Source: Dictyostelium discoideum (lineage: Eukaryota). From it: a stretch of DNA of 64,000 nt. The stretch is taken from positions 4,992,001 to 5,056,000 of the forward strand of contig CM000154.2 of assembly GCA_000004695.1 (NCBI GenBank), in the 5' to 3' direction. The notes below the pieces were generated by a model. That model was not told the origin of the DNA. It was given only the letters and a program-made list of their open reading frames with translations, and ran no database searches. A program made the position numbers and the translations under genes. This document shows positions 2,396 through 49,278 of this stretch, piece by piece; position 1 is the first letter of the stretch, and each line of letters starts with the position of its first letter.

Positions 2396-3646
<1,251 letters not shown>

Positions 3647-4258: not shown

Positions 4259-6085
4259 ATGAATTACTCAAACAATGAAGATAAACAAGAATTGATTACC
4301 ATTCAAATTGGTAATTTCTCAAATTTTATTGGAGCACATTTTTGGAATATTCAAGAAGAGAATTATCAATACTCCAAAAGAGAACAATCACAATATGAAA
4401 TTGAACCTGAAATGTTATTTCGTTCAAATATTAATAGTGAAACATTTGATAAGGTAAAAAATTCATTTACTATTTTATTTCATTTTATAAATATTTATAT
4501 TAATATTTATATTTGTTTTTTTCAATAGGATATAAAATATACACCAAGATTATTGTTATTTGATTTCAAGAGTAATTTCGGATCAATGAATAGTGATGGA
4601 AAAGTTTTAAAACAAACAAGTAAAAATATTGATAATAATGATATACTTAATAGTGGTAGTGGTGGTAGTAGTGTTAATAAAATTATAAAACAATCAACAG
4701 GTAAACCAATTGATAGAGAGAATACATTAATTGATAATTCAAATGTTGATTTCGAGTATTGGTCAGATTATTTAAATGTAGATTATAATAGTAGAGGATT
4801 AATATCAATACCAGATTCTTTATTAAATATTGGTAGTCAAGTTAGTGGTAGTGCTAATGGTCTTATATATGATGATGGTTTCGATATGTTTGAATCAAAT
4901 TATGAATATGTTACAGATATTTATCAAGATAATTTACGAAGAATGATTGAAGAATGTGATAATTTATCAGGATTTCAATGTTTGATAGATACTGATGGTA
5001 TTTGGGGTGGTGTTAGTACATCGGTTTTATCACATATTCAAGATGAATACTCTTCAAAGGTTATATCAACTTGGGCATCTACTAATTACAATCATCAGAT
5101 CGATTTGGGTAATGAAGAGTCAATTGATGAAAGAATTTATAATAGTTCAAAAACAATTCAATCAATTGCTCCATCCTCTGGTACTGGTTTAACTGATCTT
5201 TTTATACCATTATCTTGTCAAAGATGGTGGTCAACCAATAAAGGAATAATGACACCACTTGGTAGTTCAATTAATAAATCAAAATATCAAACTAGTGCAG
5301 AGATAGCAGCATCAATTGATACAGCAACACTTTATTATAGATCAAATTATTCATCACAAACATTGTCATCATTTGTTTCACATTTAACAAGTTCACCATC
5401 ACGTAAACTATGCGTTTTATCAAGTAGTTTTCCAAATAGATTACAAGAGTTTGGTTTCACTTATTCCTCTTCAAAGTATAGTCGTGAACCAACTTTTCCA
5501 AATCAACCATTGTATAGTCATCCACTAATGAATTATCTCTCGCCAAGAATCGAACAACCTGTTAATCTATCAACTAGTAGTAGTAACCCATTAACTGAAA
5601 TCATTTCATTAAGAGGTATTGATATTTTCAAATCAATAGATCACCATCATGATAGATCAGAACTTTTAAATAATTATGATAAAATTTCATCATTATTTAA
5701 AATTTACCTTTCAAATAGTTACAATGGTCATGGTAGATCTGTTTTAAATCGTTCAATTGTTAATATTGTTCAACCATTTATTATGAAAAAAAATCATTTT
5801 CCAGTTTTATCAAATAATAAAAATAAAAATAATAATAATCAAAATGAAAATAATAATATTAATAATAATTCAATTGAAGAAAATCAAGAAATAATTGAAA
5901 ATCCAAATACAATTTTAACTCATTTACAAAATACAAATTTAATTCATCCATTCATTCAATATTTAAATCAAGGTTATAAACAAATAGTACAATCAAAAAG
6001 AATGAAAAGATTAACAATTGATCAAGATTCTTTTGCTGAAACAATTGAAATATTAAATTATTTATCTGATAGTTATCAAGAATAA
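4259..6085 (+). CDS. Misato/DML1-family (tubulin/FtsZ-like) protein. Exons 4259..4453 and 4529..6085.
   Basis: The N-terminus EDKQELITIQIGNFSNFIGAHFWNIQEE and the motif YTPRLLLFDFKSNFGS match the human MSTO1 N-terminus ([21 protein letters not shown] ... TYTPRLILMDLKGS). A 75-nt intron runs from GTAAAA (4454) to AG (4527-4528) and is in frame. Confidence 0.75.
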
Positions 6086-6498: not shown

Positions 6499-7014
6499 AT
6501 GAATATTATAAAAATTTTATTTTTAGTTTTCTTAACTATTTCATTTGTTTATTCAGAATATTTTAAAATGGGATCATGTCCTAAAGGTTATTCAAATGAA
6601 ATACCCCAGGCATATCAATTCACAATAATAACAAAAAAAATTGGAAATATTTTTTATTCAGGACAAATAACTGGTTTTGGTTGCTCTCAAGATGGTATGA
6701 TTAATAATGTAAATTATAAAATTTAATTATTATAATTTATATTAAAGAATTTATAATTTTTTTATTATTTTATATATTATTTAGTATATTTGGGTGGAAA
6801 AATTTATTCGTCATATTATTTTAATGATGGTGCCTATTCAACATTTAATTTATTTGATCAATCATTCGAAGGAAGAATGATTTTTAGCTCAAACAATAAA
6901 AATTTACAAAGTATTGATTTTATTTCAGCTACTTTTAACCAAAATGTACCTGCTTCATCATTTAATTTGACTTTTATAAATGGTCGTTATAATAATCCTC
7001 CTAAAATAAGTTAA
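6499..7014 (+). CDS. Small secreted protein, hypothetical, about 141 aa. Exons 6499..6694 and 6785..7014.
   Basis: Signal peptide MNIIKILFLVFLTISFVYS. ORFs 6499..6726 and 6790..7014 share a frame and join through a 90-nt intron, GTATGA (6695) to TTTAG (6784), in phase 1. The acceptor is the only good one available. There are no family-specific motifs. Confidence 0.45.
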
Positions 7015-7482
7015 TAATTATTTATTTTTGATGGGGTAAAATAAAAAAAATAAAAAAAAAGTGGTAAAAAAAATAAAAATATAAAAATAAAATAATAATC
7101 AATATTTTTAATCTATTATCTTTTATTACATTTTTACATAATGGGTATTTATTTGATTTAAATTTTTTAAAAAATAAAGTATTATTTGTAAAATTTTATC
7201 TGTTTTATTTTTTAGATATAATTCTTAATTTTGATTTAAACTTTTAGTATAAATTTTTTTTTATTTTTTTTATTTTTTTTTTTTTGATTGGTTATTTATA
7301 TAATTTTAATTTTATTTAATTATTTTTTATATATTATTTATTTTTATTATTTTTATTTTATAAATTTTTTTTTACATTTTAAACAAACTAAATGTATTTA
7401 TAAAAAAAATTTTATTTTTTAATATTTATTCTAAATTTATCAACTGGAATTCAAATAGGAATTATAAAAAAATAAATAAAAA

Positions 7483-7917
7483 ATGAATTTAAAATCAATT
7501 ATATTTGTTTTATTTATTGCATTTTTTGCATTTTCTTTGGCTAACGACGATGATCCTACATGTCCAAATGGTTTTATATGTTTTTGGGTAGGTCAAAATT
7601 ATACAGGTGATCAATGGAAATGGACACCAAGAATGAATTATAGAGATTTACCAAGACAATATCATAATAATGTAAGTTTTTTTTTTTTATTTTTTTAATA
7701 TTTTCCAAATAAAATAAAAAAATATCTTTATTCTAACTTTTTTTTTATTTTATTTGGAATATTAAAAAATGAAAAAAAGGTTGGATCTTATGTGGCAAAA
7801 ACAAATGCTTGTTTTAAAAATTGGATTCCTTATTTAACATTTGAATGTAATGAAGGTGATTCAAGTCATAGTTTTACATTTGGAAAAATAATTGATGGTG
7901 TTTCTCATGAATGTTAA
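7483..7917 (+). CDS. Small secreted Cys-containing protein, about 108 aa, with a possible single beta-gamma-crystallin-like Greek-key domain. Exons 7483..7671 and 7780..7917.
   Basis: Signal peptide MNLKSIIFVLFIAFFAFSLA. Intron from GTAAGT (7672) to AAG (7777-7779), phase 0. The second exon VGSYVAKTNACFKNWIPYLTFECNEGDSSHSFTFGKIIDGVSHEC ends at TAA 7915..7917. The spacing FWVGQNYTGDQW ... YRDLP ... NN-S ... C resembles beta-gamma-crystallin and killer-toxin-like folds, but this is inference only. Confidence 0.5.
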
Positions 7918-8154: not shown

Positions 8155-13896
<5,742 letters not shown>

Positions 13897-48434: not shown

Positions 48435-49278
48435 ATGTTCAAAACTCTTTCAAAATCTATTGGTTTTTTAGTTGCAATTATTGCCTTAGTTAAAGGTGAT
48501 ACTTACACATGTAGTCAAATGCAATCATTGGCCGAAGGTTATTTCAGAGGTCCAACTCTAACCACTATGGTATATCATCAATTTATTTAATAATAGTAAT
48601 AATAACAATAACAATAACAATAATCAAAAGGTTTTAACATTAATTTTTTATAAAAACGAAAAAAAAAAAAAAAATCTATTTTTGGAATATTGAAATATAA
48701 AAATAAAAAATAAAAAATATAAAAATATAAAAATATAAAAATATAAAAAAATATAAAGCTTTGTATTTCATATTATGAATCAACATATAATACTCAAGCC
48801 ATTAACCCAACATCAAAAGCTGCAGGTTTATTCCAAATTCTCCCAGAACATTGTGGTGAATTATGTAAAACTTGTACAACTCCAAGTGATTTATTAAATC
48901 CAACTATTAATACTGAATGTGCTAAATCAATTTTAAATTCTCAAGGTGTAAGTGTTAAAAAAAAAAAAGATGGAAATTAAAAAAAAAGTTAAAATATTAT
49001 AATTAATATTTATTAATATTTATTATTATTATTATTTACTATAGTTCAAAGCATGGACAACTTATGCATCAGGAGATTGTAAAAATTGGAATAAATGTGT
49101 TGCACCAAGTGCTTCAACACATGCAGCATCAACTCATGGCTCAACAGGACCATCAACTCATGGCTCAACAACTCATGGCTCAACAACTTCAACTACATAT
49201 ACATCAGGTGCATCAAGTGGTTTGTTTGATTTCAAAGCAAACAATGGTGGTGGACAAGATATGGTCAAATATTTTTAA
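48435..49278 (+). CDS. Secreted SLT-domain (lytic transglycosylase / goose-type-lysozyme-like) protein with a Ser/Thr-rich tail. Exons 48435..48569, 48759..48947 and 49045..49278, about 185 aa.
   Basis: Signal peptide [21 protein letters not shown]. The catalytic-region pattern [24 protein letters not shown] matches the SLT/GEWL motif E-S-x-[FY]-N-x-x-A-x-S-x-x-G-A-x-G-L-[MF]-Q. The later AWTTYASG fits AYNAG. Introns run GTATAT to AAAG and GTAAGT to TATAG, both phase 0. Confidence 0.55.

Follow-up and report, generated by a model that had tools for sequence, protein, structure and literature searches.

The subject of this work is a 64,000-nucleotide stretch of the Dictyostelium discoideum genome (NCBI GenBank assembly GCA_000004695.1, contig CM000154.2, positions 4,992,001 to 5,056,000 of the forward strand), hereafter called the window, and within it two small neighbouring genes, A and B, that occupy positions 6,499 to 7,917. 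The explanation that best accounts for the results as a whole, and that we consider probable, is that these are two independent functional genes, B encoding a secreted crystallin domain of an otherwise actinobacterial subfamily and A an unrelated orphan. The data strongly support the view that protein B is a small single beta-gamma-crystallin domain, that it belongs to an actinomycete-type subfamily and that it is under purifying selection.

Both genes are already annotated in D. discoideum and are uncharacterised. Protein A is identical, letter for letter, to the AX4 entry XP_635404.1 / Q54F50 (DDB_G0291101), an "uncharacterized protein", and protein B to XP_635405.1 / Q54F49 (DDB_G0291103), which carries the UniProt name "Uncharacterized gerABC family protein". 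An original prediction, made from the letters of the window, had proposed two same-strand neighbouring genes, each with one short intron. Its splice models were reproduced here, and its coordinates, introns and both protein sequences were exact, since the spliced products (141 aa for A and 108 aa for B) are the database entries. The intron of gene A, for which it had suggested a check by RNA-seq, is supported by the D. purpureum orthologue, where the first intron has the same position and phase, and agrees with the AX4 database protein. In the case of gene B, no other in-frame GT..AG splice yields more than 90 aa, and the position of the intron is kept in D. firmibasis (98 nt) and in D. purpureum. 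Intronless bacterial homologues cross the B exon junction (HNN/VGS) without a gap, which lends independent support to this splice.

Protein B matched the Pfam family PF03995 (Inhibitor_I36) with 32.3 bits against a gathering threshold of 21.1 (E 1e-7); the match spans residues 21-72, that is, positions 2-51 of the 69 in the profile. The threshold was also passed by the B orthologues of D. firmibasis and D. purpureum and by Streptomyces relatives. Searched exhaustively with phmmer (E <= 0.001), a set of 1.84 billion representative proteins contained 42 relatives of B, and names were looked up for 20 of them; a word-indexed homologue search with the family profile gave only 13 proteins. The dictyostelid matches were the D. 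firmibasis and D. purpureum orthologues plus a paralogue group that includes DDB_G0278001. Leaving aside one spurious match, all 11 organism-named relatives outside Dictyostelium were from actinomycetes (Streptomyces, Actinacidiphila, Sphaerisporangium, Amycolatopsis and Kibdelosporangium), mostly annotated as "peptidase inhibitor family I36 protein". A further relative, from a Pseudonocardiales metagenome-assembled genome (MAG), came from the family-profile search, and six relatives without a taxon, from metagenome or run assemblies, have a sequence composition that looks actinobacterial. The spurious match (P0026) is a 1487-aa Sel1-like repeat protein of a Holosporales MAG, in which eight weak repeated stretches were all that aligned to B.

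Along the entire mature protein, the best bacterial relative is 44% identical to B (E 3e-15), with the four conserved cysteines among the shared residues. A 40-sequence alignment of the family keeps C27, C33, C74, C108, P57 and the FG..ID.V motif; G42 is retained in at least 90% and S66 is invariant. The actinomycete I36 proteins, such as Streptomyces WP_329367785.1 and Actinacidiphila WP_103885393.1, are the closest sequence relatives of B outside Dictyostelium. Like B they are small and secreted, and they have the same four cysteines and the GY.D.P, HD.VGSF, CFI and FG..ID.V motifs. Unlike B they are intronless and G+C-rich, some are membrane-anchored, and they lack the fifth cysteine, C86. 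These bacterial proteins are themselves uncharacterised, and their name derives solely from the Pfam match.

C86 is present throughout the D. discoideum complex and in D. firmibasis, and is found neither in D. purpureum nor in the bacterial family; an unpaired thiol at this position of a secreted protein could allow a covalent dimer or provide an attachment point. In P0038, P0040, P0045, P0047 and P0054, relatives without a taxon whose composition looks actinobacterial, the domain is C-terminal within a longer protein that has an N-terminal hydrophobic, membrane-anchor-like segment; judging from these sequences, the bacterial version of the domain seems to act both at the cell surface and as a free secreted protein.

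UniProt places B in the Dictyostelium gerABC family (gerA, gerB, gerC and DDB_G0278001), with which it was compared here through the DDB_G0278001 group. DDB_G0278001, also named "gerABC family" in UniProt, matched the B-family profile with E 6e-18, and tblastn of B on its locus gave E 8e-10. In contrast to B, this group has neither the N-terminal pair of cysteines nor an intron, and it is related to Pfam Crystall_3 rather than to I36: the Crystall_3 score was below threshold for DDB_G0278001 and above it for its D. dimigraforme orthologue, with no match to Inhibitor_I36. The DDB_G0278001 gene lies at positions 10001-10393 of the locus L001, and its neighbours resemble neither A nor B. The genes gerA-C are late-spore and germination genes (PMC6198379).

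An AlphaFold2 model of B, computed with the family alignment as input, was confident, with a mean predicted local distance difference test (pLDDT) of 91.8 and a predicted template modelling (pTM) score of 0.80. Spherulin 3a and Protein S count as its best structural matches, and the others comprised the crystallin domain of Neurospora APP, the Ciona beta-gamma-crystallin, geodin, nitrollin, the gamma and beta crystallins of the lens, clostrillin and the N-domain of DdCAD-1. Foldseek returned the same ranking, with probability 1.00 and template modelling (TM) scores of 0.6-0.69. Searched against PDB sequences, the B-family profile found beta-gamma-crystallin superfamily chains only, with marginal E-values; single-protein searches of the PDB sequences with A and with B gave nothing significant. 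Weak matches of B to collagen-IV NC1 chains in the PDB came from the CP.G[FW] motif and from nothing else, and were discarded.

The crystallin matches, together with a PF03995 score above threshold, bear out the guess of the original prediction that B is a single-domain beta-gamma-crystallin-like Greek-key protein; the fold search that it had suggested as a check, and that might have returned no structural similarity, returned similarity to beta-gamma-crystallins. The spacing from which the guess had been made (aromatic-x4-aromatic-x-G, then Ser, then Cys) is indeed present: the first Greek-key signature, [YFW]-x4-[YF]-x-G plus Ser, reads W35-VGQN-Y40-T-G42 with S66, the cysteines follow, and in the alignment with spherulin 3a S66 falls on its structural Ser49. 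As to the groups with which B had been compared, the kinship with microbial protease inhibitors stands insofar as PF03995 is their Pfam family, but the likeness to killer toxins does not, as B showed no close fold and sequence similarity to the yeast killer toxin-like proteins (WmKT / SKLP).

Besides the signal peptide, exon 1 of gene B supplies the C27xxxxxC33 loop and the greater part of the first Greek key, in which W35-x4-Y40-x-G42 lies; exon 2 supplies Ser66, the FG..ID.V motif, C108 at the C-terminus and the second Greek key, in which C74 and C86 lie. The second half of the protein, CFKNWIPYLTFECNEGD...FGKIIDGVSHEC, does not contain the second Greek-key signature ([YFW]-x4-[YF]-x-G...S), as it has no aromatic-x-G hairpin, and no Ser is conserved in this half across the 40-sequence alignment. 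The complete fold is predicted despite the absent signature, with two Greek-key motifs in one beta-sandwich domain of the model.

The N-termini of A and B are strongly hydrophobic (9-residue Kyte-Doolittle maximum of 3.3-3.5) and are followed by small residues at -3/-1. Cleavage would likely occur at VYS/EY in A and at SLA/ND in B, leaving predicted mature proteins of 122 and 88 aa, in which no further hydrophobic segment appears (19-residue hydrophobicity maximum <=0.5). We propose that, once its signal peptide is removed, B would form a single beta-gamma-crystallin domain of about 88 residues, its two Greek keys packed in one beta-sandwich and probably locked by the N-terminal CxxxxxC loop (C27-C33) and by a second disulfide between Cys74 and Cys108. 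The leading candidate role of such a protein, to which we give less than even odds, is that of a non-enzymatic and very stable extracellular module for binding or structure.

Spherulin 3a of Physarum polycephalum (PDB 1hdf/1ag4) is, among the structural matches, a single-domain microbial beta-gamma-crystallin that is also amoebozoan. It has two canonical N-D-x-x-S-S calcium motifs, whereas those of B are degenerate, and B carries a predicted signal peptide and the four cysteines conserved in its family; spherulin 3a, for its part, is an encystment protein located inside the cell. The sequence similarity between the two is marginal (hhalign probability 39%).

Within Dictyostelium, the ratio of nonsynonymous to synonymous substitution rates (dN/dS) of B is 0.27 with respect to D. 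firmibasis and 0.33 with respect to D. cf. discoideum. In the comparison with D. firmibasis the intron, located at the same codon boundary, has kept only about 66% identity and the coding sequence 88%. The gene order saposin-like, misato-like, A, B is kept in D. purpureum, implying that B already existed when the lineages of D. discoideum and D. purpureum diverged. The B family is broad and diverse in actinomycetes, and the eukaryotic members found by phmmer were only from Dictyostelium species (other amoebozoans were not checked directly). In a neighbour-joining tree, the nearest outsiders to the dictyostelid sequences were Streptomyces and Actinacidiphila proteins; the B orthologues grouped together in 57% of the bootstraps and the paralogue group in 100%.

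This taxonomic distribution suggests an ancient transfer of B from an actinomycete to an ancestor of Dictyostelium, a history that we favour but do not regard as proven. In its most economical form, the gene would have entered the ancestor common to D. discoideum and D. purpureum, would then have gained a eukaryotic signal peptide, one intron and the AT-rich codon usage of its host, and would later have duplicated to give the DDB_G0278001-type paralogues. We give somewhat less than even credence to the proposal that the B/gerABC lineage is a domesticated actinobacterial gene, acquired from a Streptomyces-like soil bacterium and later duplicated into spore-germination genes.

Several points weigh against this interpretation of B and its neighbour. 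The fold of B is a prediction, and the pairing of its disulfides is inferred rather than taken from coordinates. The canonical Ca2+ motifs (N/D-N/D-x-x-S/T-S) are not found in B; the first is degenerate, H-N-N-V-G-S, with His at position 1 and Gly at position 5, and the second reads I-D-G-V-S-H in a low-confidence alignment, so the likeness to spherulin 3a and Protein S is structural only, although B may retain some residual Ca2+ binding. The secretion of A and B is read from a heuristic of hydrophobicity and the -3/-1 rule, not from a dedicated predictor. The transfer from a bacterium to an amoeba is an argument from distribution coupled to a weak tree, poorly resolved, in which all dictyostelid sequences were monophyletic in only 30% of the neighbour-joining bootstraps. 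Searches of full text and of transcriptome supplements with both gene identifiers found no expression, localisation or biochemical data for A or B. Finally, Pfam groups B with a protease inhibitor, although we regard an inhibitory role of this type as the less likely one.

Regarding function, our ranking places a protective or matrix role first, inhibition of metalloproteases second and an antimicrobial effect third. The first is favoured because the structural relatives of B and the gerABC family are tied to cysts, spores and fruiting structures; spherulin 3a, Protein S and APP are associated with one or another of these. By analogy, B may protect cells or contribute to a matrix, an assignment that we put forward tentatively, as the leading candidate among possible roles.

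It is unlikely, in our judgement, that B is a MEROPS I36-type inhibitor whose exposed reactive-site loop binds M4 metallopeptidases and shields the amoeba or its spores from bacterial proteases. The founder of I36 is SMPI of Streptomyces nigrescens (PDB 1bhu), whose targets are thermolysin, pseudolysin and griselysin (PMC9002140). SMPI, the only I36 inhibitor known to have been characterised, belongs to the Pfam family of B and has a CPxGxxC loop and a crystallin-like Greek-key fold; B even scores higher against PF03995 (32.3 bits) than SMPI does (26 bits), and the N-terminal CPxGxxC(x)[WY] loop and first Greek key are common to both (hhalign, 23 columns, probability 66%). However, PF03995 covers residues 3-52 of SMPI and thus not its reactive-site bond, which is reportedly Cys64-Val65 (Seeram et al. 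1997). The Pfam name is therefore uninformative about inhibitory function.

The alignments disagree on the counterpart of the Cys64-Cys69 loop of SMPI. With MAFFT --add, Cys64-Val65 falls opposite the family-conserved Cys74-Phe75 of B, and a hydrophobic residue at P1' would match the preference of M4 enzymes. In a forced global hhalign, by contrast, the SMPI segment ...KVTCVRFPCYQ... is an insertion without counterpart in the B family, and the local hhalign extends over 23 residues only. Also contrary to an inhibitor of this type, the second half of B lacks the CxxxxC mini-loop, and the B-family profile did not find SMPI among the PDB sequences at E <= 10. The gene neighbourhoods of three actinomycete B homologues had nothing in common and offered neither consistent protease neighbours nor a functional hint.

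We consider it improbable that B acts as an antimicrobial or toxin-like effector on bacterial or fungal envelopes, in the manner of Streptomyces AFP1, plant MiAMP1 or the yeast killer toxins. Saposin-like and lysozyme-like proteins are also encoded in the window, and the bacteriolytic Bad proteins of Dictyostelium have been suggested to adopt a MiAMP1-like Greek-key fold (PMC7886984). Yet these saposin and lysozyme genes are 3-40 kb off, with no known co-regulation, and the structural matches of B to AFP1, MiAMP1 and killer-toxin proteins were clearly weaker than those to ordinary beta-gamma-crystallins, with no similarity in sequence. Mature B is, moreover, acidic (net charge -3), unlike most membrane-active antimicrobial proteins. 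Neither DDB_G0291101 nor DDB_G0291103 appeared in the supplementary files of bacteria-response transcriptome studies, a weak negative result since these files may be incomplete.

The other half of our preferred explanation, two independent genes with a crystallin domain in B, concerns protein A. This is a beta-rich, presumably secreted orphan with two conserved cysteines, restricted to the D. discoideum/D. purpureum lineage. It had no match in Pfam, NCBIfam or the PDB sequences, and pattern scans of 185,579 prokaryotic genomes and of JGI metagenomes gave no confirmed relative. Compared with D. cf. discoideum, it differs at 24 nucleotides and 6 amino acids, and the resulting dN/dS of 0.10 indicates purifying selection. 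An intact, unannotated A orthologue is present in D. purpureum GL871213.1 (positions 7111-7667 of the locus L003; tblastn E 3e-21, 49% identity), where the misato-like gene flanks it on one side and the B orthologue on the other. It has one intron more than gene A, and it keeps both cysteines and the QF.IITKK, DGAY.TF, FEGRMIF and R.NNPPK motifs. In D. dimigraforme, the 708-aa protein KAN0037891.1 merges the misato-like gene with the A orthologue, which looks like an error of the gene model.

The situation is different in D. firmibasis. No gene was called in the interval between the misato-like gene and B of CM069767.1, and no plus-strand open reading frame (ORF) in it exceeds 28 aa. A remnant of A exon 2 was located at positions 9465-9644 of the locus L002, recognisable from blocks in which 79-90% of the nucleotides are identical; stop codons and deletions (7, 8, 11 and 10 nt) interrupt its frame, next to an intact B orthologue. 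What had looked like a leftover of the A signal peptide in this species is the DNA of this remnant in a different reading frame, and was discarded. On this sequence evidence A is a pseudogene in D. firmibasis. Gene A is lineage-restricted, constrained in D. discoideum and dispensable in D. firmibasis.

Genes A and B had been described in the original prediction as a tandem pair. They are adjacent and on the same strand, but they are not tandem paralogues: their similarity in BLASTP was limited to the signal peptide, and the window contains no paralogue of either. Their adjacency on the same strand is kept in D. discoideum strains, D. cf. discoideum, D. citrinum and D. dimigraforme, where the locus tags are consecutive, and also in D. 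purpureum; furthermore, both mature proteins open with a CP.G[YF] motif. Nevertheless, we find it very unlikely that selection has kept them together as a functional two-gene module, for instance a secreted protein with its partner or chaperone, given that nothing beyond the signal peptide is similar between them, that the B paralogue DDB_G0278001 has no A-like neighbour, that the adjacency may be plain inherited gene order within a block (saposin, misato, A and B) that is syntenic as a whole, and that in D. firmibasis A is broken and B is intact and under purifying selection, which argues against an obligate partnership.

The features of the two genes are collected in Table 1. The GC content of the window is about 20%, with 24-28% in the exons and 7-11% in the flanks and spacers.

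Table 1. Features of genes A and B, in positions of the window.
Feature	Positions	Strand	Description	Basis or comparison
Gene A (DDB_G0291101), exon 1	6499..6694	+		Splice model; exact match to XP_635404.1
Gene A, predicted signal peptide	6499..6555	+	MNIIKILFLVFLTISFVYS; codons 1-19	Hydrophobicity and -3/-1 rule
Gene A, intron	6695..6784	+	90 nt, GTATGA...TTTAG, phase 1, 5.6% GC	Splice model; D. purpureum intron, same position and phase
Gene A, exon 2	6785..7014	+	Includes the stop; codes for the conserved DGAY.TF, FEGRMIF and R.NNPPK motifs	
A-B intergenic spacer	7015..7482	none	8.8% GC; presumably site of the A 3' end and the B promoter	D. firmibasis spacer alignable, 68% identity
Gene B (DDB_G0291103), exon 1	7483..7671	+		Splice model; exact match to XP_635405.1
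Gene B, predicted signal peptide	7483..7542	+	MNLKSIIFVLFIAFFAFSLA	Hydrophobicity and -3/-1 rule
Gene B, intron	7672..7779	+	108 nt, GTAAGT...AAAAG, phase 0, 10% GC	
Gene B, exon 2	7780..7917	+	Includes the stop	

Among the other genes of the window, a single ORF of 416 aa on the minus strand (2396-3646) begins like a signal peptide and contains two or three saposin B domains as well as long tracts of poly-Asn and poly-Ser; D. purpureum likewise has a saposin gene at the syntenic position. A three-exon gene on the plus strand (48437-49278) encodes a secreted lysozyme-like protein with a tail rich in Ser, Thr, His and Gly. The original prediction had named both a saposin-like and a lysozyme-like gene, as part of a conjectural enrichment of the window in small secreted effector-like proteins, and Pfam agrees with the two assignments: the former matched SapB_1 (75.7 bits) and SapB_2 (54.5 bits), and the hand-spliced product of the latter matched Lys (C-type lysozyme, 40.2 bits) and SLT (38.4 bits). 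The misato/DML1-like gene (Pfam Tubulin_3) lies upstream of A at 4553-6085 on the plus strand. Converging on the 3' end of gene B, a single ORF of 1913 aa on the minus strand (8155-13896) has extensive poly-Asn, poly-Thr and poly-Ser tracts, and its equivalent is present in D. firmibasis and in D. cf. discoideum.

In summary, B is one more uncharacterised protein of a well-known superfamily, from a genome that had already been annotated; the value of our results is mainly one of annotation, and current understanding is unchanged. They provide a fold and a family for a Dictyostelium "hypothetical protein" and, by extension, for the little-studied gerABC germination family. What is modestly new is the caveat on the I36 label, the sharing of a subfamily between actinomycetes and Dictyostelium, and the dynamics of gain and loss of the neighbouring orphan A. 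The name "peptidase inhibitor I36" is not functional evidence, as the Pfam model corresponds to the N-terminal Greek key. Gene A exemplifies the fast turnover of lineage-restricted, presumably secreted proteins: it is under constraint in D. discoideum, lacks an annotation in D. purpureum and has decayed in D. firmibasis. A subfamily that is nearly exclusive to actinomycetes and Dictyostelium makes for a plausible and testable case of gene transfer in a predator-prey pair of the soil; if B had also retained SMPI-like activity, an inhibitor of bacterial origin would be serving the amoeba against the metalloproteases of bacteria.

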